A stretch of 64,000 bases of DNA, taken from the IMG/VR virus record IMGVR_UViG_3300031951_000008, one strand, 5' to 3'. Made by a program: the position numbers and the translations under genes. The notes under the pieces were generated by a model. It was not told where the DNA came from. It was given only the letters and a program-made list of their open reading frames with translations, and did no database searches. How positions within the stretch are numbered: position 1 is the stretch's first letter; every line of letters starts with the position of its first letter. The stretch comes from a virus (Duplodnaviria; Caudoviricetes). Positions 435 to 63,933 of this stretch are shown in pieces.

Positions 435-1808
435 ATGGCCAAAATTAAGGCTATCAAGCAAGCAATTGAAGTTTGTATGAAGACCAGGGCAACTCCATTT
501 ATTTGGGGCCACCGTGGGATCGGAAAATCGAGTATTGTCAAACAAATCGCTGCTGAACAGGGCATCGGATTTATCGATCTGCGGTGTTCTCAGTTAGAGG
601 CATCTGATATTCGTGGGCTTCCCGATAAGTCCTACGGCGAAGGCGAGGGATCACAGGATTCTAAATGCACCAAGCAAACAGCTTACAGCCGCACTGTTTA
701 TCTTCCACCTGCTGATATGCCAATTGGCGACTTAGAGGATGCAGAGATTATGGCTCAGTTAGGCGACTATCCAAAGGATGGTGACTGGAAAGGCGATTTG
801 CAAGCCGAGAGGATTTTCGATCGCAAATGGAGGGCTATGCAGCCCCGGTTTAAGCGAGGTATCCTTTTCTTAGACGAACTTAATAGAGCAGCCGACGATG
901 TTCTCCAAGCTTGCTTCCAATTGGTTCTTGACAGAGCAGTTGGTCAATATACCCTACCTCCTGGGTGGGCTGTGGTGGCGGCAGGTAACTTCCAAGAAGG
1001 CTACCTCACTAACGGTTTTAATGACCCAGCATTCCTCGATCGGTTCGTCCATATGACACTCAGCACCGGCGAGGATACTCTCGAAGAATGGATCGACTAC
1101 ATTACTGCTGTGCATGGCAACAATGCTTCTTCTATTATCGAATTCGCTTCACAAAATACGAAGCACCTTGACGGCGATATCGCAGGCGACCTTGGATTCA
1201 CGATTCAGCCGTCAAGACGATCATGGGAGCAGGTAATCAAAGCTGAGAAAGTAATGCGAGAGATTGGGTCGTCACAAACTGTTCGATTGTTGATCCTTTC
1301 AGGCTTGATTGGCCAAGAACTAGCATTTGCCTACATCAATTACGATTGCCCCGTCAAGCCTAAAGATGTCATCAACAACGGTGTAAAGGCTTACATGAAA
1401 GAACTCGAATCATTACAACGCAACCAGCTTATCGGCCTAATGTGGGGTTTGGTCAGCTTTTGTAAGGACAAAATCGAAGACGATAAGGTCGGCGAGACTT
1501 GCCTTGATTTTGCGGAATACATGATCCCCAAGACTGCAGACAAAGACGTAATCGTAGCGTTTTGCCGAGCCCTTGTCGGTGCCAACGCGGACAACAACGA
1601 CGCTCAAACGTTGGCGGCCACTATTACCAATCCACAGCTCGCTAAGCTTATCGCCAACTACAGAGCGAAGACTGGTGTCGTCAGCAAGAACTTCGTCGAT
1701 CGCTTGGCGGCCAGACCGGCCTTGCAAGAAATCTTGTCTAAGACTGCTTGGGGTGATCCAAGCAATGAGCCTCTGACTACGAAGGGCAAAAAGAAAACTA
1801 AGGCTTAA
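435..1808 (+). CDS. MoxR/dynein-related AAA+ ATPase
   Basis: Walker A GHRGIGKS, DLRCSQLEASDIRGLP, Walker B ILFLDELNRA, AAGN, AFLDRF arginine finger, PSRRSWE; SD AAGGA. Confidence 0.9.
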   Translation: MAKIKAIKQAIEVCMKTRATPFIWGHRGIGKSSIVKQIAAEQGIGFIDLRCSQLEASDIRGLPDKSYGEGEGSQDSKCTKQTAYSRTVYLPPADMPIGDLEDAEIMAQLGDYPKDGDWKGDLQAERIFDRKWRAMQPRFKRGILFLDELNRAADDVLQACFQLVLDRAVGQYTLPPGWAVVAAGNFQEGYLTNGFNDPAFLDRFVHMTLSTGEDTLEEWIDYITAVHGNNASSIIEFASQNTKHLDGDIAGDLGFTIQPSRRSWEQVIKAEKVMREIGSSQTVRLLILSGLIGQELAFAYINYDCPVKPKDVINNGVKAYMKELESLQRNQLIGLMWGLVSFCKDKIEDDKVGETCLDFAEYMIPKTADKDVIVAFCRALVGANADNNDAQTLAATITNPQLAKLIANYRAKTGVVSKNFVDRLAARPALQEILSKTAWGDPSNEPLTTKGKKKTKA

Positions 1809-1813
1809 ATGAA

Positions 1814-1883
1814 TGGTCGGAAGTCGGAGGTATTAGACAGGGTGACAAGCCTAGATTCGCAGGTTCGATTCCTGCCCGGCCAT
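1814..1883 (+). tRNA. tRNA-like element with atypical D and anticodon arms (anticodon ambiguous: ACA or GAC)
   Basis: 7-bp acceptor TGGTCGG/CCGGCCA, canonical T arm GCAGG-TTCGATT-CCTGC, D-like GTC...GAC with GG; anticodon stem mismatched; no encoded CCA. Confidence 0.55.
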
Positions 1884-1910
1884 TTACTTCTATTACAAGG
1901 AATTTAAATT

Positions 1911-3095
1911 ATGTCTGATAAGCTAACAACTGCTAGATGCCGATTAATGATGCGTGAGCCATGGTATGGGCAATTCGCCCTACGCATGAGCTGGATTCCT
2001 TCTGATATGCCGTGGCTAGAAGAAGAACGCAGGACAATGGGCGTAAGGGTTATGTCTAGTGGCAATGTAGAATGTATCTTCTATCCGCCATTTGTGGAAC
2101 GTTTATCCTTGCCTGAGATTTTTGCGGTAGTTCAGCATGAGATTCAGCATATAGTCCGTTTACACTGCTTGCGAAGACACGACAGACATCCAGAGGCCTG
2201 GAACGTCGCGGCAGATATGACTGTGAACGGCACTAAGGATAGCCCAAGGATTGGTTACAAAGACACGAGCAATGGCTCCGGGGCATTAATCATACCAGAT
2301 AAGGATAAACTTGTCTGGATTCCAAAAGATTGGCCATCAGATGCAACTGCAGATTATTTCTATGATCGCTTAATGAAGGACGCTATAACAATTAACGTCT
2401 ATGGCACCGTTTTGGATGATCACTCAGTTTGGCAACAATCTGATGCTTCACCAGATGAAGCAAGGCAGATCGTAAAAAGCTTAGTCGATCAAGCAACGGC
2501 ATCAGCAAGAGGGCATGTTCCCGGTGACTTATCAGAAGCTATACAAAAACTAGGCAAGCCAATCGTTAGATGGAGGGAATTGTTAAAACAATACCTTGGA
2601 CGATACGTTGGTAACAAGAGAGACACTTATTCGCGACGCAATCGTCGCAACGATAGCTTCGGAGTACCAGGGATTAGCCATCATTCGGCTGCAAACATCA
2701 ATGTTATCGTCGACACATCCGGGTCCATTTCTACTGATGACTTGCAGCAATTCTTTGGCGAAATAGAAGCAATTAGCCACAGAGCTAAGACGATGGTCCT
2801 CCAATGGGATCATGGTTTTCAGAGTTATACGAAATATCGAAGAGGCGACTGGAAAAGCTTCAAGGTTAAGGGTCGTGGTGGCACTGATATGGCTGCTCCT
2901 ATGAGGTGGCTAAAAGAGAACATGAAAGTCGCAGATGTTCAGATAATGCTTACTGACGGAATGTGCAACTATCTGCCGAAGAAAGAGGTTAACTTTCCGG
3001 CTATTACGGTGCTGACACAGCCGCTGCCTACCGGACAGAAGAATGGCTATTACGCAGCTATTCCAGAGTATGGCCACGTTTTGTCGCTTAAGTAG
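1911..3095 (+). CDS. DUF2201-type metallopeptidase-like + VWA domain protein (MoxR partner)
   Basis: HEIQH zincin motif, WNVAADM, MIDAS DTSGS, GRGGTD, LTDG; follows the AAA gene. Confidence 0.85.
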   Translation: MSDKLTTARCRLMMREPWYGQFALRMSWIPSDMPWLEEERRTMGVRVMSSGNVECIFYPPFVERLSLPEIFAVVQHEIQHIVRLHCLRRHDRHPEAWNVAADMTVNGTKDSPRIGYKDTSNGSGALIIPDKDKLVWIPKDWPSDATADYFYDRLMKDAITINVYGTVLDDHSVWQQSDASPDEARQIVKSLVDQATASARGHVPGDLSEAIQKLGKPIVRWRELLKQYLGRYVGNKRDTYSRRNRRNDSFGVPGISHHSAANINVIVDTSGSISTDDLQQFFGEIEAISHRAKTMVLQWDHGFQSYTKYRRGDWKSFKVKGRGGTDMAAPMRWLKENMKVADVQIMLTDGMCNYLPKKEVNFPAITVLTQPLPTGQKNGYYAAIPEYGHVLSLK

Positions 3096-7705: not shown

Positions 7706-8917
7706 TTGAGTTTAAATACGCAACAGAAAAGAGGGAGTGCGATACATATCGGATTCCCTGGCCGGACTTGGATTCAGGTCCCACAGGGGGTGTCGACTAA
7801 GCAAAGCCGCCTCTCTTTTGTTGGCTATGCGTCTGTCGGTGGCGGCAATGTTATATTATCTACAACAGATGCTAAGTTATACTTACTGGCTTACCAGTTG
7901 CAGACCGCAGATTCACTTTTACGTAGTACAACAATATTAACAAGTGCTACAGATTCGTTACTGCAAAGTAGTAACGAAATTTATCAATCTACTGATACAC
8001 TATTGGTACAGACTAATAGTAGCACATATACTACTGACTCTAGTTTAAAGAGTCTTAACAGTGCAGTACAATCGACAGATACTTTGCTTGTCAAGAACTT
8101 TAGCACTTCGCACTCAACAGATATATCTGTTTCTAGTGCCAGTTTTGCCAGTACGACCACTGACACATTATTAAAAGGGTCAGTAGCCAATCAACAATAT
8201 GTAGACGCTTTACTTAAACGGACTAGTGTAAGGTCACATACGACTAATTCTTTATTGAGAACGACCGTTGACAAGAGCTTAAGCACTGATTCATTGCTTA
8301 AATTGAAGACTGTTATACAACAAACTACGTCTAGTTTGCTTAAGGCCACATTTGTACCATACCAAAGCATTAGCTCTTTGCTAAAAAGAACTAGTACGAA
8401 AACAACGACTGCTGACTCTTTATTAAGATCCACTTTTATTAAACAACATGCAGTAGATTCTTTGCTTAAAGCGAGGAATGTTGTTAGTAATTATTCACAA
8501 TCGAGGTTAAAAGGCCAGCTCGATCTTGTAAATTACACTAACGCTCTTTTGAGGCTGAATAGTGTTCAGGCACTGACTACTAACGCTTTGTTAAAGCAGG
8601 CCAAGCAATCTAGCCATTACACCTCTAGCTGGCTTAAGCTGACTAGTACACGCACAGCTAAGACCGATTCTAGGCTGAAGTCTACTAATGAGAAGCAGCA
8701 GACTACAGGTGCCCTTTTAAAATCAACTAACACAGAGGTTCAGCAAGCTAATGCATTGCTACGAGGAAGGTTTACAAATGCCCATAATACTGTTGCTAGA
8801 TTAAAGTCTACATTTATAGTTAATCATAGCACTAACGCATACTTAATGCCGGATGCGTTAAATGGTATCTATACAGAGTCGACTTTCGATGCTGATATAT
8901 GGTGTTCAGTATATTAA
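7706..8917 (+). CDS. 14-residue repeat fibre/needle-like protein
   Basis: TTG start after AAGGA; 25 in-register 14-aa units T(D/N)(S/A)LL(K/R)x8 from aa 54 to the C-terminus. Confidence 0.75.
   Translation: MSLNTQQKRGSAIHIGFPGRTWIQVPQGVSTKQSRLSFVGYASVGGGNVILSTTDAKLYLLAYQLQTADSLLRSTTILTSATDSLLQSSNEIYQSTDTLLVQTNSSTYTTDSSLKSLNSAVQSTDTLLVKNFSTSHSTDISVSSASFASTTTDTLLKGSVANQQYVDALLKRTSVRSHTTNSLLRTTVDKSLSTDSLLKLKTVIQQTTSSLLKATFVPYQSISSLLKRTSTKTTTADSLLRSTFIKQHAVDSLLKARNVVSNYSQSRLKGQLDLVNYTNALLRLNSVQALTTNALLKQAKQSSHYTSSWLKLTSTRTAKTDSRLKSTNEKQQTTGALLKSTNTEVQQANALLRGRFTNAHNTVARLKSTFIVNHSTNAYLMPDALNGIYTESTFDADIWCSVY
7865..8914 (+). repeat. degenerate 42-bp/14-aa tandem repeat x25
   Basis: Units such as TDSLLQSSNEIYQS, TDTLLKGSVANQQY and TNALLKQAKQSSHY keep the register without indels. 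Confidence 0.85.
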
Positions 8918-10404
8918 AATTGAACATCAAGATCTCTGAACGAGCATACACCGGTTTGACCTAATGCGGAGTAATCTCCTAAGGTACCGCGTTTATTAGT
9001 CTTGCCTATCAACAAAGTTGTCGGATTGCCTGATAGAACTGATGTTGGCACGGTGATAACAGTCGTCCAAACGCCATCTCCCATTATTTCTCCGACATAA
9101 GTATTGTTCTCTCTTTTTATTCTTAGAATATACTCTTTGTTTGGCATAACTCTACCAATACCTGTAGTTTCTTTGCCATTAAGTGTAGCCGCGTAAGTAT
9201 TCTTACGTCTTAGGTTTATCTTAAGGTTACGGTCAGCGGGCCATAAGACCGACATTCCCGGTCCCCATGATAGCCCTTGGTCGGTGCCGGTGTTTACGGT
9301 AACTCTGATAGACTTAAACGAGCCTATATTACGTTGTATAACGCAATAGGCATTCGCCGGAGAATTGATTTCTATAGAATCTGGCTTAGTAGCAATTCTT
9401 CCGTGTACGGTAGCGGTCTGCCATTTTCCATCATCTAGCTCAAATGAAGGATTAAGCGACGCACCAGGATTATACAAGCTCAACCCATATCTATTGACAA
9501 CGGTGGATATGGGGTTTGCTATTGTCACCTTATCCGATCCGGCGAAAAGCAATGCTACAGCGTTCATATTCATATCTAGTATTAAGCTGCCTGAGTCTCC
9601 GCCGTCACTCATGCTAGTCAGAACAACACAATTATTAAACCTAGCTGGCCCGAAGTCGTATCCGATTGTGAAAGTAGCACTCAAGCCGATGATACGACCA
9701 GTAGTATATCCTGTTGTTCGACCTACTTTTTGTACGGGGGTGTTGACCGCTGGTGTCGCAAAGCCAGCTAGTGGCCTATTGATAGTCGGATATAATAGAT
9801 TAACCATCCCTGAACTGATGAATGATTCATGGATGCGGGCAATGGCTGAATCTTGGACGTTGCCGTCAGCATTCAATTTAACATAATCTTTGAGTGTTGC
9901 GAAATATGGTGAATTACTAGGGGATTGATTCCAACCCGTGAATTCCATATTCCCACGGCTATCGAGGGTACCAGGCTGATATATGACATCGCCTATCTTT
10001 GCAGCGTTTTCATTGGCTAGGACGTGATTGTTACTTAAGACTACTGGATGCTTATCTTTGTCGAGGAAAATGCCACCTATCGTCCCTGCTGTAACACTTC
10101 TGTGGCTGCAGCTATAACCTGGCTGTATTGGCCGGATCTTGCTAGTATAGCCCTGTTTAACTATGTCGCCTACTTCTATAACGTCGGTCGGAATGCCATC
10201 AATTCGATCTGGTATCAATTCAGACGCAGAGAATTTACCGATAACGTTAGCTTTGGTAGATTTCTTCTGCACGAACACAAGTATAGCTGGTGAATCGGTT
10301 GGCTTACCATCAACCCATTTGTGTCCTACACCAATGCCGTTGACGGATTTGAGACCAATAAATTGTTCAGTAACTGATTCTTTAACAGCTAATACATCAT
10401 CCAT
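8914..10404 (-). CDS. trypsin-like (S1, Nal1-like) serine protease with N-terminal prodomain and C-terminal beta domain
   Basis: LSNNHVL (His), DSAIA (Asp), GGDSGS (Ser), VQKVGRTTG, IDGIPTDV; SD AAGGAG. Confidence 0.85.
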   Translation of the reverse strand: MDDVLAVKESVTEQFIGLKSVNGIGVGHKWVDGKPTDSPAILVFVQKKSTKANVIGKFSASELIPDRIDGIPTDVIEVGDIVKQGYTSKIRPIQPGYSCSHRSVTAGTIGGIFLDKDKHPVVLSNNHVLANENAAKIGDVIYQPGTLDSRGNMEFTGWNQSPSNSPYFATLKDYVKLNADGNVQDSAIARIHESFISSGMVNLLYPTINRPLAGFATPAVNTPVQKVGRTTGYTTGRIIGLSATFTIGYDFGPARFNNCVVLTSMSDGGDSGSLILDMNMNAVALLFAGSDKVTIANPISTVVNRYGLSLYNPGASLNPSFELDDGKWQTATVHGRIATKPDSIEINSPANAYCVIQRNIGSFKSIRVTVNTGTDQGLSWGPGMSVLWPADRNLKINLRRKNTYAATLNGKETTGIGRVMPNKEYILRIKRENNTYVGEIMGDGVWTTVITVPTSVLSGNPTTLLIGKTNKRGTLGDYSALGQTGVCSFRDLDVQF

Positions 10405-35898: not shown

Positions 35899-35927
35899 TC
35901 CAAAGTCTTTTGACTCTTTTATTTAAT

Positions 35928-37313
35928 ATGCCTACTGGTAAAAGTATCGACTGGCAACTATATGATAATATGATAAACATACATCTACCGCATATGACTA
36001 TCTCTGACTTTCAAGCCAGATACTTGCCTAGCATCTCTGCCAAGGCTATAGGTTCACGGGCGAAAAAATTAGGCGTTAGGCCTAAAAAATATGTCCCTAC
36101 TGATATACATAAAACCAAAATTTCTAAATCAGCAAGCAAGGCTTGGACTGATAAGGAAGATGATATTCTTTTATCTTCAGCTCATATCCAATCTATAGCA
36201 GAATTAGCGATACGGCTCCAAACTACTAAGTCGGCAGTTCATAGAAGATTAAAGCATCTTGGCTTTGAACAAAAAGAGGCAGACATCGCTCACAAACACA
36301 GCCGCAGGACAATCGAGTCATTTACTCTAGAAAGGAGGCAAATGCTTTCTACTCTTAGTAAAGGTCGTAAGCTTACAGATGAACATAAGGCTAAATTAGC
36401 CGAAGCACGCAGGAGACAATCTGGTAGAATTAGCAGTATACAGCAATCGTTTTATGATATAGCGGACAGTATGCATATAGAATATAGAAAAGAGTCGGAA
36501 CCCGAATGCAAAATAGGACCATGGACATTTGATGCGTTTGTTAGCCCCAATATCTTGGTAGAGATCCAGGGCGAGTGGATTCACTCTCAACACAAGAATA
36601 TTGTTAAAGACGCGGCCAAAGCAACATATATTGCTAAATATTTCCCACAATACCGTTTAGAATACATTTGGGAAGCTGAATTCGGTTCGCCTAATAGGAT
36701 AAAGGACCGTATTAACAAGATGATAGGCATTATACAGACAGAGCAAATAGATTTCTCTTTTGTAGATGTAAGAACAGGATTAGGTAATTTAGAAGAATCA
36801 AGACGGTTTATAAATGCATATCATTATTTGGGCAATTTAAAGGGCAGCATAACATTTTCTGCATATTTATATGATGAGATGATCGCTACAGCCATCTATG
36901 GAGCACCATCGCGACCGTTAAATGGAGACTATGGTAGTTATCCCTCATGTTTAGAATTAAGACGTTTAGTTATAAAAGAAGGATATAATAAGAAAAATTT
37001 CGCTAGTTGGTTTTTAACTCGCTCTGTAGCCTTGGTACCCCCTAAAACTAAAAAATTGGTATCGTATGCAGATCCTGTTTTTGGTCATAATGGCACAGTA
37101 TATAAATCTAGTGGCTGGGATTTCGACGGGATTACAGAGCCGAGCTACTATTATATAAGCAATGATGGTTACGTCATGCATAAAAAGACTCTTTTCGAAA
37201 GAGCCAATTCGGTTCACATGAAGGAAGCCGACTACGCTCAGAAGCATGGCTGGACTAAGGTACCGACTCCTCCAAAAAATAGGTTTGTAAAGAATTTATG
37301 CAAGTCAAGATAG
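35928..37313 (+). CDS. HTH/NUMOD3 + DUF559-like endonuclease + Mom-like GNAT DNA modification domain fusion
   Basis: WTDKEDDIL..SIAELAIRLQTTKSAV; KGRKLTDEHKAKL; FDAFV..ILVEIQGEWIH..D; FINAYHYLG, ELRRL, SYADPVFGHNGTVYKSSGW; TTG at 35910 is an alternative start. Confidence 0.7.
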   Translation: MPTGKSIDWQLYDNMINIHLPHMTISDFQARYLPSISAKAIGSRAKKLGVRPKKYVPTDIHKTKISKSASKAWTDKEDDILLSSAHIQSIAELAIRLQTTKSAVHRRLKHLGFEQKEADIAHKHSRRTIESFTLERRQMLSTLSKGRKLTDEHKAKLAEARRRQSGRISSIQQSFYDIADSMHIEYRKESEPECKIGPWTFDAFVSPNILVEIQGEWIHSQHKNIVKDAAKATYIAKYFPQYRLEYIWEAEFGSPNRIKDRINKMIGIIQTEQIDFSFVDVRTGLGNLEESRRFINAYHYLGNLKGSITFSAYLYDEMIATAIYGAPSRPLNGDYGSYPSCLELRRLVIKEGYNKKNFASWFLTRSVALVPPKTKKLVSYADPVFGHNGTVYKSSGWDFDGITEPSYYYISNDGYVMHKKTLFERANSVHMKEADYAQKHGWTKVPTPPKNRFVKNLCKSR

Positions 37314-40419: not shown

Positions 40420-41322
40420 ATGTCAGATATATTAGTTACTAAACAAGTAGTCAAGCAAGTAAGTGATAGTAATGATATTACGGAGGAATTAGCAAAGTTT
40501 GTTTTGGATTATATCGCATATTATTACCAAGAGCCGACGAGAGGTGTTTTGACTGCCCAAACGGTTGAAGAGCACGTTAAAACAATACAGAGCCAACTTG
40601 GTATGGAAGTTACTGGTCAAATAGACCTAAATACAGTAAAAACATTGGAGCACACTCCTAGGTGCGGTATTCCAGATTATACTAAGTCAGGGGCTCAAGC
40701 AGTCACGAGTTGGGGGCAAAGAAAGCTCACTTATTTTATTGAGAGGTTCGTCAGAGGGCTTTCTACATCCGATCAAGCGGATATTATCAAATTAGCTTTC
40801 GACCAATGGACAGAGGTAGCTAATATTCAATTCGAAAGAGTTAGTGATTCAAAGAATGCTAATTTGGTGCTGTCAACCGGGTCCGGAAGAGCAGACAACT
40901 TTGATGGCCCTGGGAACACACTCGCTTGGGCATATCTGCCACCATCTCTTAATTATAGGGGTCAATTGCTAATGCGATTCGATCTCGACGAGACTTGGAT
41001 CAATGATCCGAATTCAAGAGGTATACTAATGAGAAACGTCGCATGTCATGAATTTGGACATATGCTAGGCTTAGAGCATTCTCGTAATTCTAGGGCTTTG
41101 ATGGCCCCATACTATTCGCCTGGTGTAGCAAAACCTCAGGCACAAGACGACATTCCTAGAATACAGGCTCTATACGGCCCGCCAGTCTACGTGCCGCCAC
41201 CAAATCCGACTCCGACTCCTACTCCGACTCCTAGTGGCAAGTATGTCGTGCAGATTACGACTGATAGCTTGTCTAGTATTACTGTTAATGGCAAAAAGTT
41301 AACAGACTTCTCATTAATATGA
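40420..41322 (+). CDS. matrixin (M10/MMP-like) metalloprotease with PGBD-like prodomain and cysteine switch
   Basis: IQSQLGMEVTGQIDLNT, PRCGIPD, FDGPGNTLAWA, HEFGHMLGLEHS, ALMAPYY Met-turn, PT linker. Confidence 0.9.
   Translation: MSDILVTKQVVKQVSDSNDITEELAKFVLDYIAYYYQEPTRGVLTAQTVEEHVKTIQSQLGMEVTGQIDLNTVKTLEHTPRCGIPDYTKSGAQAVTSWGQRKLTYFIERFVRGLSTSDQADIIKLAFDQWTEVANIQFERVSDSKNANLVLSTGSGRADNFDGPGNTLAWAYLPPSLNYRGQLLMRFDLDETWINDPNSRGILMRNVACHEFGHMLGLEHSRNSRALMAPYYSPGVAKPQAQDDIPRIQALYGPPVYVPPPNPTPTPTPTPSGKYVVQITTDSLSSITVNGKKLTDFSLI
41206..41232 (+). repeat. Pro-Thr linker microrepeat
   Basis: CCGACT/CCTACT units. Confidence 0.7.
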
Positions 41323-42404
41323 GAATACCAGTGTACGAGCCTTGCTTAGACGAGGCCGAAACCGAAAATGTGCTGAAGTGCTTGAGAGAAGGTTGGATAT
41401 CCTCCAAGGGAGAGTTTATCGACAGATTCGAAGCTGACTTCGCTAACTATGTCGGATCAAGTCAAGCTATTAGTGTTTCAAATGGAACTGTAGCACTACA
41501 TTTGGCTTTATTGGCGTTAGGACTAGGTCCAGGGGACGAGGTTATAATACCAGGACTGACTTATGTAGCAACGGCTAATAGCGTCGCTTACGTCGGTGCC
41601 ACTCCAGTATTGTCTGATATTAATCCAGATGACTGGAATATAGACGTTGATCGCTTAGAGAGTCTAATAACATCTAAGACTAAAGCTATCATACCGGTGC
41701 ATCTATATGGCATGCCTTGTCATATGGAGCAAATAGTAGACATAGCCAGTAGGCATAATCTTTTTATCATAGAAGACTGTGCAGAAGCGTTAGGATCTAA
41801 GATAAACGGTAAACATGTTGGGACGTTTGGAGACATAGCGACTTTTAGCTTTTATGGCAATAAGACAATAACTACCGGTGAAGGAGGCATGGTAGTCACC
41901 AATGATCGTATGCTTGGCATGAAGACAAGAAAATTAAAGGGCCAAGGTCTATCAGATAAAGAGTATTATCACGATGTGGTAGGTTACAATTATAGAATGA
42001 CCAATATCTGTGCGGCAATAGGAGTCGCTCAACTTGGTAAATTAAATAGTATATTAACTCGTAAATCCGAGATTGCCGATAGGTATCGATGTGCTTTAAG
42101 CTTATTCGCCAGGTTCCAGCCAGACTTACTCGGTTATACGAATTCATACTGGATGGTAAGCTGTATCTTACCGGGCTGCAATATTGCTGCTATTAGAAAC
42201 CATCTGTCAGTAAACGGCATAGAAACTAGGCCATTCTTTTATCCAATAAATAAGCTGCCTATGTACAAGGCATGTTCAGAGATACCAACAAGTGAGAAGA
42301 TTAGCCCTATGGGGCTTAATCTGCCAAGCTCGCCCAACTTAACTGATCGAGACGTAGATTTTATAAGCAAGCTACTAGTCGATTTTATGAACAATAATAT
42401 ATAA
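41319..42404 (+). CDS. DegT/DnrJ/EryC1/StrS aminotransferase (perosamine synthetase-like)
   Basis: SNGTVALHLAL, IEDCAEA, SFYGNKTITTGEGG (PLP Lys), GYNYRM. Confidence 0.93.
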   Translation: MRIPVYEPCLDEAETENVLKCLREGWISSKGEFIDRFEADFANYVGSSQAISVSNGTVALHLALLALGLGPGDEVIIPGLTYVATANSVAYVGATPVLSDINPDDWNIDVDRLESLITSKTKAIIPVHLYGMPCHMEQIVDIASRHNLFIIEDCAEALGSKINGKHVGTFGDIATFSFYGNKTITTGEGGMVVTNDRMLGMKTRKLKGQGLSDKEYYHDVVGYNYRMTNICAAIGVAQLGKLNSILTRKSEIADRYRCALSLFARFQPDLLGYTNSYWMVSCILPGCNIAAIRNHLSVNGIETRPFFYPINKLPMYKACSEIPTSEKISPMGLNLPSSPNLTDRDVDFISKLLVDFMNNNI

Positions 42405-60834: not shown

Positions 60835-61329
60835 ATGATAGATACAAATGGTTCTGTGTTTTACCAAGACGATTATGGGCAGCTCTATAGGACGACTTGG
60901 GAGGTCAAATCTGACAGGATCTCTATTACGAGTGCTGTTTTCCAACCATACATATGGGGTAAAGAATCTGAAGTAATTAGACGCAATAATAACATATATA
61001 AGGAAGGCATTGTCACGGTTACTGAACAGATCTTACAACCTGTCGAATATGGTTATATAATTATAGCCGAAGGAACTACTCAGTACGAAGATTATATACA
61101 ACTAACTTTTAATTGCGAGATGGGTCCAAGAGACGATTTTAAATATCATCTCAACAATCTGTGTACAGACCAGGTAATATCAGCCATCACCTCTGGTCCT
61201 CGTTGGGCAGATCCGGATGATCCTAACGATGTTAATTGTGTATGGGCGGACGTGAATAACGATGGCAGCCCAGTTGACATTACCGCAACTGGAGGAGTAG
61301 ATATATTATCTTGGATCGATGTCTGGTAA
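60835..61329 (+). CDS. hypothetical, possibly structural protein
   Basis: 164 aa, acidic, AAGGA SD. Confidence 0.65.
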   Translation: MIDTNGSVFYQDDYGQLYRTTWEVKSDRISITSAVFQPYIWGKESEVIRRNNNIYKEGIVTVTEQILQPVEYGYIIIAEGTTQYEDYIQLTFNCEMGPRDDFKYHLNNLCTDQVISAITSGPRWADPDDPNDVNCVWADVNNDGSPVDITATGGVDILSWIDVW

Positions 61330-61338
61330 TATCTGAAC

Positions 61339-63033
61339 ATGCGAACTATATTATTAATCATTTTACTGGCAAGTACCTGTATAGGGCAAGATAGATTCTC
61401 ATTGGTTAATGGTGCTGTTACGCCAAAGGCCATCGATTTTAATTTATCCGATTACCAAGCATTCGTAAAAGATGTAAAGACAGCTCCTACGCCTACTAAC
61501 GCTATAGATCTAGCTATAAGCGATCTAGCTACTGTCGATGAGTTCCAAAGACCTTTCTTAAGATATGTGTGGGTACCAGATGGCGACATGGCTAAGGTCG
61601 GACAGGTATCCTTTGCTGTTAATACTGCTATATCGCATTCGAGCAATATCGTTATACCAAGCGTGGTTCAAGGTGGTAAGCTAGTTAGATGGGATCTGCG
61701 ATTATTAGCTCCTATAACAAGTGACTTGACAAGGTTGATTACTCTATGGGAAAAGCTAGCCGACGAGCCGTACTTTCACGTTAAACCAGCGTTACCTTTA
61801 AATGCCGTAGTAATCGCATCCGCTACTGGCGACCCAACAGGATCTAAGAGGTTTAGAATAGGCGATCAGCTATTTTTCCAAGCGGTAACTGGTGATATAT
61901 TCCTATTTTATAACAACGCCTGGAAAAAGCAAGATATACCAGCATTTGGTAGCCACACCAATTTACAATCAGCAGTGATATTGCAAGGCCTCACGCAATC
62001 AAATGCCCCTATTGTGAGATACGATTGGTTTATCGTAAAGATTTTGTCTGCTGTAGATGGTGGCTTGTATTATGATTTTATCAATGTAGAAAGAAATCCG
62101 AGGGGTAAATCTGCACAAGATGCATGGCTAGAAAGTTTAGGAGTGTCGGAGAAAGCGATTCAGAGCCTGAAATCCGACCAAAGGTCAGCTATCTTTAGGT
62201 CCAACGTTACCGGAAGACCCAGACGAATAGATTTATTTCAAGGCTCTTACGTTAGACCTTCTGCTGGCAGTGGCCTTATAACTATAACCCACGACATTGG
62301 AGAGGGTGATCTAGGGACTGATAAAGATCCAATAAGAAATTTATTAGATTTTAAAGACAAGGCGAGAGAGGTTATAGCCGAAAGACCAAACGGTTTGCAC
62401 ATCTTTCTCTTATTTGACGGCAATGGTGGCCTGCAAAATTCTGCACCAGATGATATCGTTAGAGATCATACCATTCCGTCCCCTCATCCCGCCAGAGTTC
62501 AACCTGCTATTGGGTGTATTCGTTGCCACGGTCCTTTCGAGGGGGTACAACCATTTGCAAATGATGTTCAGACAATGCTCAAGAGCCGTTTAGACATATT
62601 CGGCGATCTATCTAGCAAGCAATCAACACCGGACGTGCTTGATAGGCTAGCCGGGCTGTATACCGGAGACTTTCAAAAGCCTATAAGAAGGATGAGAGAT
62701 GATTACTCCGATGCAGGGTTTATGGCATCTGGTGGCCAAAGCATTCCTGTCGTTTCTGCCGGTATATCGAAAATATATGGTGAGTATTTTTACGATACTG
62801 TAAGTGCTGAAAAAGCTTGTGCTGAATTAGGTTTTATAGTACCCAAAAGCAAATCTGTAGACTATTTAAAGATATTATTGCCCCCATTGCCACGGGACAT
62901 AACTGGCATTATTCCTGAAGACCCTATAATTGGTGCGTTGAAGTCAGGCTTAGCGGTAAATAGATTCCAGTGGGAACTGGTCTATGGTGACGCTGCATTT
63001 CGCGTGCAACAATCATTACGGTCGAAGAAATAG
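61339..63033 (+). CDS. secreted monoheme c-type cytochrome-like protein
   Basis: Signal peptide MRTILLIILLASTCIG; CIRCH at 62515-62529 after ERPNGLHIFLLFDGNG..APDDIVRD. Confidence 0.65.
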   Translation: MRTILLIILLASTCIGQDRFSLVNGAVTPKAIDFNLSDYQAFVKDVKTAPTPTNAIDLAISDLATVDEFQRPFLRYVWVPDGDMAKVGQVSFAVNTAISHSSNIVIPSVVQGGKLVRWDLRLLAPITSDLTRLITLWEKLADEPYFHVKPALPLNAVVIASATGDPTGSKRFRIGDQLFFQAVTGDIFLFYNNAWKKQDIPAFGSHTNLQSAVILQGLTQSNAPIVRYDWFIVKILSAVDGGLYYDFINVERNPRGKSAQDAWLESLGVSEKAIQSLKSDQRSAIFRSNVTGRPRRIDLFQGSYVRPSAGSGLITITHDIGEGDLGTDKDPIRNLLDFKDKAREVIAERPNGLHIFLLFDGNGGLQNSAPDDIVRDHTIPSPHPARVQPAIGCIRCHGPFEGVQPFANDVQTMLKSRLDIFGDLSSKQSTPDVLDRLAGLYTGDFQKPIRRMRDDYSDAGFMASGGQSIPVVSAGISKIYGEYFYDTVSAEKACAELGFIVPKSKSVDYLKILLPPLPRDITGIIPEDPIIGALKSGLAVNRFQWELVYGDAAFRVQQSLRSKK

Positions 63034-63054
63034 AGGCTGATAAGGAGCTTAAAA

Positions 63055-63933
63055 ATGGTTAGAGTGTTAGGTATTTTAATCGTTATTATGTTTACTACTT
63101 CCGCTGACGCGCAATTGCTGCGATCGAGATCACGGGTAGTTGTTCAACAACCAGTATGTGCTAATGGTGTTTGCAATGTGCAAGCAGCACCTGTAATCCA
63201 AGCAACACCTGTAATTCAAGCAGCACCGGTAATCCAAGCACCGGTTAACCATTTCCAGCAGCCAATCATCCAAAGCCAAGTGGTCGGAGTACCTGTCCCG
63301 GTTCAGTATACCCAGCCTCTAGTAGCACAAGGCAACACCGTATATGGCTACCACGCATTGTCACAATTCCAGAATCAAGTAGACATGGGTCTACTTTATA
63401 ATCAAGCGGCGAGGTTAACAGATCAAGCACAACAATTAGCTGGTCAGGCTGCTACTGACTTTCAAAATATCGTGCAAAATGAGGGTCAAAACCGCTTAGA
63501 GATAGCTAAGATCATTGCACAGGGTCAGGCTGCTAAAGAGGCTTTGCTAGCAGCCAAAGGTCCTGAGACAATTGTTCAAAAGCGTGAATTCAGTTTTAAG
63601 ATCACTCAGCAATCGGACGGTCAGTTTAAGATAGAGCAAACGGATATGAGTCCTGACTTTGGCCTGATTAGCGGTAAACAGTCTGCTAATAATGTGGCTA
63701 GCGTATCAAATTTGTTATCTCAGAAGTGCGTTGCTTGTCATAATGACAGTAATTCAATGGGCGGGTTAAACTTGTTGAAGCCTATAACGGAGCAGCAACA
63801 ACAGTCTATCATCAACCGTGTCGTAACAGATGATGAGTCAATTAGAATGCCCAGATTGAAGTCTGGCGCACCCGCCCCTAAGCTGTCCAAAGAAGAAATA
63901 GCCTTGCTATATCAGGCTTTCAAAGCTCAGTAA
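63055..63933 (+). CDS. secreted protein with C-terminal Planctomycete-type cytochrome c (PSCyt1-like) domain
   Basis: Signal peptide ending ADA-Q; CANGVC; CVACHN..GGLNL...RMP...LSKEEIALL (heme motif 63727-63741, distal Met). Confidence 0.75.
   Translation: MVRVLGILIVIMFTTSADAQLLRSRSRVVVQQPVCANGVCNVQAAPVIQATPVIQAAPVIQAPVNHFQQPIIQSQVVGVPVPVQYTQPLVAQGNTVYGYHALSQFQNQVDMGLLYNQAARLTDQAQQLAGQAATDFQNIVQNEGQNRLEIAKIIAQGQAAKEALLAAKGPETIVQKREFSFKITQQSDGQFKIEQTDMSPDFGLISGKQSANNVASVSNLLSQKCVACHNDSNSMGGLNLLKPITEQQQQSIINRVVTDDESIRMPRLKSGAPAPKLSKEEIALLYQAFKAQ
63181..63246 (+). repeat. 18-bp coding tandem repeat (QAAPVI)
   Basis: Three full units plus a partial unit. Confidence 0.8.

Follow-up and report, generated by a model that had tools for sequence, protein, structure and literature searches.

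A predicted exported pair of haem c proteins, the split counterpart of bacterial two-haem proteins, is widely conserved in phages and often lies beside proteases

Introduction

Proteins with the PSCyt1 domain (PF07635, "Planctomycete cytochrome C") form a large class, bacterial two-haem proteins included, for which we know of no function. Among other haem c proteins, cytochromes P460 and c'-beta are beta-sheet proteins that bind nitric oxide and carbon monoxide or oxidise hydroxylamine, and the cytochrome c domain of the three-haem peroxidase YhjA is the point of electron entry that feeds its catalytic haem. Genes for exported c-type cytochromes have hardly ever been reported from phages; the sole precedent that we found is SoxD, reported from only two viral contigs (Kieft et al. 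2021, PMC8190135). Here we analyse a stretch of 64,000 nucleotides (nt) from a virus (Duplodnaviria; Caudoviricetes; IMG/VR record IMGVR_UViG_3300031951_000008), hereafter the window, in which two adjacent genes, P1 and P2, each encode a predicted exported protein with a single haem c attachment motif (CxxCH). An earlier note on this DNA, made from its letters, had called c-type cytochromes untypical of phages; they are indeed rare, but SoxD (PMC8190135) means that they are not unprecedented.

We find that P1-P2 is a genuine and widely conserved phage cassette in which, as far as sequence tells, each protein has an export signal and one haem-attachment site. On profile alignment, P1 and P2 together correspond, in split form, to a bacterial two-haem protein whose single chain joins PSCyt1 to a P1-like domain, and P1 itself is the phage branch of an unnamed haem c domain family. 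The best explanation of the whole, to which we give a probability of about 0.55, is an exported, split two-haem cassette that would be matured by the host and linked to proteases. None of the papers that we found describes the P1-P2 pair or its protease link.

Results

Two adjacent genes for predicted exported haem c proteins

The features of the two genes, with coordinates in the window, are as follows.

61339-63033, plus strand: P1, an open reading frame (ORF) of 564 amino acids (aa) for a predicted exported mono-haem protein of an undescribed family
61339-61386, plus strand: signal peptide of P1 (residues 1-16), read from the sequence, with predicted cleavage before Gln17
62515-62529, plus strand: haem-attachment motif CIRCH of P1 (residues 393-397, with C393, C396 and H397), the invariant CxxCH
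63055-63933, plus strand: P2, an ORF of 292 aa, predicted exported, with alignment A2 and an AlphaFold2 (AF2) model
63055-63111, plus strand: signal peptide of P2 (residues 1-19), ending in SADA, an AxA site before Gln20
63286-63555, plus strand: P2 residues 78-167, the most conserved part of the family, with the motif PVPVQY..QG.TVYGY and then helix 111-167
63685-63930, plus strand: predicted C-terminal class-I cytochrome c domain of P2, from profile, fold and invariant residues
63727-63741, plus strand: CVACH of P2 (residues 225-229), followed by GGLNL and RMP
63847-63852, plus strand: putative distal Met-Pro of P2 (M265-P266), within RMP

The two genes are 21 nt apart on the plus strand, and among the credible ORFs of the window they alone contain CxxCH. 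Export signals were judged by rule of thumb, and conservation was read from an alignment of 21 P1 homologs (A1) and one of 19 P2 homologs (A2). The earlier note had seen a Sec-type leader and a single CxxCH in each protein, and we see the same: both leaders have a positive n-region, a hydrophobic core and a small-residue site before Gln.

P1 is the phage branch of an unnamed haem c domain family

A word-indexed search returned 217 P1 homologs at E<=1e-3, and an exhaustive search extended the family to 2851 cluster representatives at 50% identity. The haem motif, on whose conservation in homologs the earlier note had made its reading depend, occurs exactly once in all 254 P1 homologs (120 of 120 and 134 of 134 in two sets) and in 86 of 87 P2 homologs, the exception being a 176-aa fragment. 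C393, C396 and H397 are invariant in 21 of 21 sequences of A1, down to 37% identity, and across very different phages P1 is 37-66% identical. A hydrophobic N-terminal segment is present in 98 of 116 homologs; in A1 the N-termini are hydrophobic leaders with a small residue before Gln, some distant ones being membrane-anchored instead. The family is also undescribed, as the earlier note had thought possible of the whole module: P1 has no match in Pfam (E<=1), PHROGs, NCBIfam or PADLOC, and its profile finds nothing among the sequences of the PDB at E<=10.

The AF2 model of P1 has a predicted local distance difference test score (pLDDT) of 83 and a predicted template modelling score of 0.80. It consists of an alpha/beta N-terminal part, a five-stranded sheet (residues 283-360), the helix that bears CxxCH (391-397) and a helical C-terminal part. 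Foldseek gave no meaningful match to this model in the PDB or among Swiss-Prot models. An exhaustive VIA-align comparison of residues 245-450 with the PDB ranked cytochrome c'-beta/P460 structures 1 to 3, although the scores are weak (8brk, Z 5.0 over 105 residues with a root mean square deviation (rmsd) of 3.6; 6hiu, Z 4.8; 7s5o, Z 4.3). From the model, the haem of P1 may possibly sit in a beta-sheet pocket like that of cytochrome P460 or c'-beta.

Besides CxxCH, phage and bacterial P1-like members share invariant Arg, Asp, Tyr, Asn and Glu columns. Their alignments offer no conserved Met, Cys or Lys for the role of sixth haem ligand, and A1 has no invariant Lys at all. Because no such ligand is conserved, the haem of P1 is probably open or weakly ligated and would be ligand-binding or catalytic.

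Two observations concern proteins with a CAP (cysteine-rich secretory protein) domain. One P1 homolog (P0250, 700 aa) has such a domain fused at its C-terminus, and several large phages (L006, L017, L019, L044) have small genes for CAP-domain proteins (157-196 aa) a few kb downstream of the cassette.

P2 joins a phage-specific half to a predicted electron-carrier domain

P2 has 88 homologs, and the N-terminus is hydrophobic in 84 of 85, with small-residue sites before Gln in A2. From N- to C-terminus the protein comprises the leader, a Cys-x4-Cys segment, a linker rich in Pro, Gln and Val, a docking-like motif, helix 111-167, a beta-hairpin and a cytochrome c domain of ~80 residues. The columns from G78 to L164 are invariant or nearly so in A2. 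In the AF2 model, helix 111-167 has a pLDDT of ~88-90 and the PVPVQY..QG.TVYGY motif is disordered. A search of the ESM Atlas with the N-terminal half gave coiled-coil look-alikes only. This non-haem half was found in only one of the 401 Planctomycetota genomes searched (that of Bremerella sp. P1), and by this distribution it is essentially phage-specific.

The C-terminal domain is of a familiar kind. C225, C228, H229, G236, M265 and P266 are invariant in A2 (CxxCH in 19 of 19), and residues 211-290 are modelled with three helices. The PSCyt1-like pattern that the earlier note had picked out is there, in the form of GGLNL and RMP with the invariant M265-P266, and the PF07635 hidden Markov model (HMM) scores 20.2 bits, just below the Pfam cut-off of 22. 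Precomputed annotation assigns PF07635 to 19 of the 88 homologs and PF13442 to two. Among PDB sequences, the profile of the family hits cytochrome c subunits from bc1 complexes (E 9e-4), and the best fold match of residues 213-292 is the N-terminal cytochrome c domain of YhjA (9qdt; Z 6.1, rmsd 2.6 Å over 73 residues, 25% identity). Because CxxCH...G...MP is invariant and both profile and fold match cytochrome c, we infer that this domain is a PSCyt1-like class-I cytochrome c with His/Met ligands, of the electron-carrier type.

Phage P1-P2 as a split version of bacterial two-haem proteins

Searches of AlphaFold DB clusters and the ESM Atlas recover the fold of P1 with a template modelling score (TM) of 0.6-0.8. 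Two of the clusters are viral, and bacterial ones come from Planctomycetota, Myxococcota and Pseudomonadota. There the fold shares its chain with PSCyt1 (in up to 96% of members), with WD40 plus PSCyt1, with DUF4384 or with a Ser/Thr kinase; clusters that carry PSCyt1 match P1 with TM 0.64-0.69. At the level of sequence, P1 matches were found in 7 of 301 Planctomycetota genomes. These planctomycete ORFs are ~600 aa long and have a signal peptide and two CxxCH motifs ~390 residues apart, with PSCyt1 N-terminal and above the Pfam cut-off. One relative is instead a 952-aa protein with kinase, PSCyt1 and P1-like domain, and another joins the domain to DUF4384. One sub-threshold NCBIfam match to two-haem peroxidases was seen, in a bacterial relative of P1.

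Profile alignment of phage P1 with five of the Planctomycetota proteins (hhalign) gave a probability of 99.5% and E 9e-23 over 362 columns at ~24% identity. The alignment spans P1 residues 54-504 and includes the haem site, the CIRCH of P1 aligning with the second CxxCH of the bacterial proteins. The P1 chain has a single CxxCH and no PSCyt1 domain, which is found on the separate P2. By this alignment, the phage pair is the split equivalent of the single-chain bacterial protein, and this relation is the strongest evidence that P1 and P2 work together. A complex prediction for P1 (18-564) and P2 (70-292) with alignments scored 0.00 and speaks neither for nor against binding. The kinase-fused relatives favour a sensing or binding role for the P1-like domain.

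In the Planctomycetota loci (L058-L064; genomes G138, G208, G191, G224, G301, G044), the two-haem gene is followed by a gene for a secreted protein of ~370-470 aa that belongs to no known family (alignment A4). This ~400-aa partner was considered as a relative of P2 and is not related to it. A gene joining WD40 to Peptidase_C14 (caspase-like) lies beside the two-haem gene in 5 of 7 loci, and one locus also has an M48-TPR peptidase gene. PADLOC matched the bacterial module to no known defence system.

The cassette is conserved across phages of very different size

The earlier note had asked whether the contig might be chimeric around the two genes. It is not: at least 5 independent assemblies contain the exact P2 amid the same neighbours (methyltransferase, baseplate gene, 164-aa ORF and P1, then the downstream genes). 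The stretch at 57-64 kb is present almost in full in 13 public runs, which come from at least 9 studies and are mostly freshwater metagenomes. G+C content is level across the P1-P2 region. Relatives with ~50% identity, on contigs of 294, 354, 369 and 408 kb, have the same four-gene arrangement (a baseplate gene on the minus strand, then a ~160-aa ORF, P1 and P2 on the plus strand) and keep synteny with baseplate, Nudix, deaminase and sigma-factor genes. More distant relatives (28-42% identity) lie on IMG/VR contigs of 26-185 kb with terminase, portal, Mu-F or baseplate genes, and 32 IMG/VR loci in all have terminase, portal or baseplate genes.

The survey of related phages that the earlier note had called for finds the pair to be kept. 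Using HMMs built from A1 and A2, a P2 homolog was found after P1 on the same strand in 31 of 35 distinct phage loci, mostly directly and otherwise within a few genes; in three of the other four the contig end intervenes. The order P1-P2 is kept down to 28% identity and on contigs of 26 to 408 kb. In many loci (L006, L008, L013, L014, L022, L025, L031) a small third gene (90-163 aa) with a signal peptide comes right after P2; these genes are too diverged to cluster, and the phage of the window has none.

P1 patterns match only four contigs of metagenome-assembled genomes in GTDB (one genome per species). Given that these fall in four unrelated phyla and that one is identical to an IMG/VR contig, they are most simply read as mis-binned phage. 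The chromosome of Bremerella sp. P1 (L001/L065, ~1.275 Mb) has a lone P2 homolog of 257 aa (48% identity over 72% of the query), and this genome has no P1 match. This homolog hints weakly that part of the family has its hosts among Pirellulales. A transposase gene and a Peptidase_U49 (Lit-like) gene lie in the same region, and a nearby 540-aa gene, considered as a P1 relative, is not related.

Proteases of unrelated families accompany the cassette

Clustering of neighbouring genes over the 35 phage loci showed P2 to be the sole universal neighbour of P1, with proteases the next commonest. The proteases beside P1 are mostly immediately upstream on the same strand and belong to five unrelated families: subtilases in two clusters (7 and 4 loci), matrixins (4), papain-like (2) and astacin-like (4) proteases and one Nal1-like serine protease, the last being a Nal1_C-type enzyme two genes upstream of P1 in L011. 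A protease adjoins the cassette in 20 of the 28 non-jumbo loci. Counting phages and bacteria together, P1-like genes are paired with proteases of at least 7 unrelated families. Because a neighbour that is replaced by unrelated enzymes of the same activity is the usual mark of a functional link, this pattern argues for one between the cassette and proteolysis.

The candidate partner protease of the window lies 20 kb from the cassette.

40420-41322, plus strand: matrixin (Peptidase_M10; PF00413, E 2.8e-33), candidate partner protease

Its N-terminus weakly resembles PG_binding_1 or a propeptide of the cysteine-switch kind, and homologs lie directly upstream of P1 in L010, L013, L018 and L022. 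The four jumbo relatives with P1-P2 each have exactly one matrixin gene (4 of 4).

With regard to a lysis cassette, PF00959, PF01510 and PF01464 were not found in five smaller phage records (43-75% complete), and PHROGs assigned none of the flanking genes tested to holins, endolysins or spanins. Two other identities for the pair were rejected. As virion structural proteins, P1 and P2 have no structural match in PHROGs or Pfam, and their signal peptides and haem c sites imply export. As two-component spanins, an identity weighed because the pair follows a possible lysin, they fit poorly: P1 is a 564-aa globular protein, the leaders lack a canonical lipobox and no PHROGs lysis family was matched.

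Haem maturation and the remainder of the window

The earlier note saw no haem-maturation genes in the window and reasoned that the host must supply them, and our searches bear this out. No WWD motif of the CcmC/CcmF/CcsA type is present in the window. PF01578 and PF05140 (the CcmC/CcmF/CcsA family and ResB) were not found in two jumbo relatives that have the pair (408 kb, 100% complete; 354 kb, 98%), searches that were tested on these relatives of the present genome and that recovered the families in named control genomes. Because related complete jumbo phages encode no haem-attachment genes, the host's Ccm or Ccs machinery must be what attaches haem to P1 and P2, if their predicted haem sites are used.

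Two genes flank the cassette on its upstream side.

60835-61329, plus strand: 164-aa ORF without signal peptide, ending 10 nt before P1
57269-60757, minus strand: 1162-aa Tail_P2_I-like baseplate protein (PF09684, 24.1 bits against a cut-off of 20.6)

The structural-type gene that the earlier note had placed on the strand of P1-P2 is the Tail_P2_I-like gene, which is divergent from the pair; the same-strand upstream gene is the 164-aa ORF. The baseplate gene is kept beside the cassette in 7 jumbo loci, and by neighbour clustering the position of the 164-aa ORF is conserved in the 7 jumbo-phage loci only. This ORF is the probable first gene of the P1-P2 transcription unit. Its sole Pfam signal is a weak match to DUF6985; PHROGs, NCBIfam and PADLOC gave no match and an ESM Atlas search nothing usable. 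A 516-aa gene after the cassette in L013 was considered as a relative of the Tail_P2_I-like protein, and no relation was detectable. A scan of 60.5-64 kb for promoters and terminators scored no better than shuffled sequence, and no RNA dataset was listed that contained either the 7-kb stretch or P1 alone.

Elsewhere in the window, the matrixin gene overlaps the start of a DegT/DnrJ/EryC1 aminotransferase gene (E 2.8e-117; the two span 40420-42404). A 496-aa ORF on the minus strand (8914-10404) has a sub-threshold NAL1 N-terminal domain match (24.5 bits against a cut-off of 27) and may be a second protease of a cassette-linked class in this phage. The C-terminal part of a 467-aa ORF on the plus strand (35910-37313) has a match to the Mom family of proteins (E 1.1e-14), a hint that the phage modifies adenine in its DNA. 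At 435-3095, also on the plus strand, an AAA-type ATPase gene is followed by a gene with a DUF2201 putative metallopeptidase and a VWA-like domain, a pair often found together.

Discussion

A candidate haem switch possibly linked to envelope proteolysis

Based on these data, we propose the following scheme. Host Ccm or Ccs would attach one haem to each of the exported proteins P1 and P2. The His/Met domain of P2 would then exchange electrons with the haem of P1, which would be open to a ligand or substrate, and the pair would act as a haem switch or oxidoreductase in the periplasm, sensing or altering the redox or ligand state of the envelope. In the late phase of infection, during lysis or envelope remodelling, P1-P2 might control the phage protease, be processed by it or act alongside it. 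That the pair acts with a protease in this way is a tentative guess, and on balance a rather doubtful one. By analogy with the planctomycete loci, one could go further and suppose that envelope proteases have P1-like haem c domains as their sensing or activating partners. In bacteria the proteases would be secreted WD40-caspase-like proteins, and phages would have captured the module, split it and coupled it to interchangeable proteases that time or execute envelope breakdown, or would use it to subvert the host's own version; this extension we consider unlikely.

Several points weigh against a cassette that works with proteases. Eight of the 28 smaller loci have no recognisable protease, and none lies within 7 kb of the cassette in the 7 jumbo loci; in jumbo phages, the window included, the protease is 12-50 kb away, so that the link there is one of co-occurrence only. 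The phage proteases beside the cassette show no clear signal peptide, so that contact with P1 and P2 would have to wait until the membrane is breached, or would never occur. Their adjacency could also reflect a shared insertion hot spot near tail genes, which is possible because in L013 a baseplate wedge gene lies just upstream. The likeness of P1 to P460 and c'-beta is itself weak, since a Z of 5 lies less than 1 above unrelated rows and Foldseek is silent. More broadly, haem attachment, export, contact between P1 and P2 and activity are read from the sequences and models.

There are other explanations of the pair. It might be a set of auxiliary respiratory genes, P1 and P2 being extra soluble cytochromes for the host's periplasmic electron transport during infection, like phage SoxD. 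The C-terminal domain of P2 is of the ordinary electron-carrier type, both proteins are predicted to be periplasmic and host-matured, and phage auxiliary genes for c-type cytochromes are on record (PMC8190135). However, no family of respiratory or sulfur-oxidation cytochromes is matched by either protein, P1 has several domains in its 564 aa and many invariant polar residues away from its haem site, and P2 is best conserved in its non-haem N-terminal half. In bacteria, the relatives are fused to kinases, WD40 and DUF4384, their neighbours are caspase-like rather than respiratory genes, and the cassette's phages vary so widely in G+C content and genome size as to suggest no single host pathway. 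We regard this role as quite unlikely. A decoy or antagonist would be a different matter: if the host's two-haem protein and WD40-caspase formed a periplasmic stress or suicide pathway, the phage homolog could block or hijack it. Phages often carry mimics of host defence. P1 is homologous to a sensor-like bacterial domain whose kinase fusions imply sensing, and caspase-like genes stand beside the bacterial genes in 5 of 7 loci. Yet PADLOC recognises no known defence system in the bacterial module, identity between P1 and the bacterial domain is only ~24%, and the bacterial relatives occur in 7 of 301 Planctomycetota genomes against a very large phage family. Such a decoy would also leave the phages' own proteases beside the pair unexplained, and we think it decidedly unlikely.

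The two remaining alternatives fare worse. T5-like phages keep receptor-blocking genes beside receptor-binding genes, and P1 and P2, which are predicted to be exported and adjoin baseplate genes in jumbo phages and in L013, could in the same manner keep further phages from entering, as T5 Llp and the Cor proteins do. Known exclusion proteins, however, are small and fast-evolving, whereas P1 is large and holds 37-66% identity across very different phages. Both proteins also have an invariant haem site, a sign of redox or ligand chemistry of which, to our knowledge, no known exclusion protein makes use. Most smaller loci have no tail genes beside the pair, and nothing tested specifically supports superinfection exclusion or receptor masking, which strikes us as very improbable. 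As for an artefact, in which host DNA was misassembled onto a phage contig or the CxxCH motifs arose by chance and hold no haem, PSCyt1-like domains are admittedly typical of Planctomycetota rather than phages, and one P2 homolog does lie in the Bremerella sp. P1 chromosome. The junctions recur in at least 5 assemblies and many runs at level G+C, synteny persists at ~50% identity, 32 IMG/VR loci have phage hallmark genes (terminase, portal or baseplate), only the four scattered GTDB contigs match, one of them identical to an IMG/VR contig, and the motif is invariant in hundreds of homologs. These recurring junctions, the synteny and the motif invariance contradict both versions of the artefact, which we rejected as scarcely credible.

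Significance

As accessory genes for exported c-type cytochromes in phages, P1 and P2 may have a function that is new. Dozens of phage lineages, on contigs as short as 26 kb and in genomes of up to 408 kb, conserve the two-haem module, and the P1 family comprises thousands of sequence clusters with no Pfam entry and no solved structure. Through the relation between split and fused forms, a defined partner domain can be assigned to the PSCyt1 class, which has lacked an explanation since the first genomes of planctomycetes. If the protease link is true, haem would control or assist proteolysis in the bacterial envelope, and phages might have a new mechanism of lysis or takeover.

Comparison with known systems

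The closest relatives of the cassette are the PSCyt1 proteins. P2 resembles them in the CxxCH...GGL.L...MP of its C-terminal domain, and P1 is homologous over 362 columns to the large second domain of the ~600-aa two-haem proteins of Planctomycetota and Myxococcota. Unlike in those proteins, the phage domains are on two polypeptides, and the PSCyt1-like domain is C-terminal, behind a phage-specific N-terminal half. The model of P1 (residues 245-450) resembles cytochromes P460 and c'-beta in a beta-sheet followed by a C-terminal CxxCH, and P1 likewise lacks a conserved sixth ligand. However, Z is only 4.3-5.0, sequence searches give no match, an invariant Lys for the P460 cross-link is lacking, and P1 has two further domains, so that this is a resemblance and not membership.

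Phage SoxD is, like P1 and P2, a phage-carried CxxCH cytochrome that needs maturation by the host (PMC8190135). SoxD acts in the known pathway of sulfur oxidation, whereas P1-P2 match no metabolic pathway and are widespread in phages. The N-terminal cytochrome c domain of YhjA (9qdt) is the best solved match to P2, but P2 has no peroxidase domains and P1 is unrelated to two-haem peroxidases, the sub-threshold match in a bacterial relative apart. Finally, the planctomycete haem gene beside a WD40-caspase-like gene in 5 of 7 loci, together with existing fusions of WD40, PSCyt1 and the P1-like fold, recalls the eukaryotic apoptosome of cytochrome c, the WD40 protein Apaf-1 and caspase. In contrast to the apoptosome, the bacterial proteins carry export signals and no NTPase was seen among them, and the phage proteases come from other families and lack WD40; the likeness is an analogy only.

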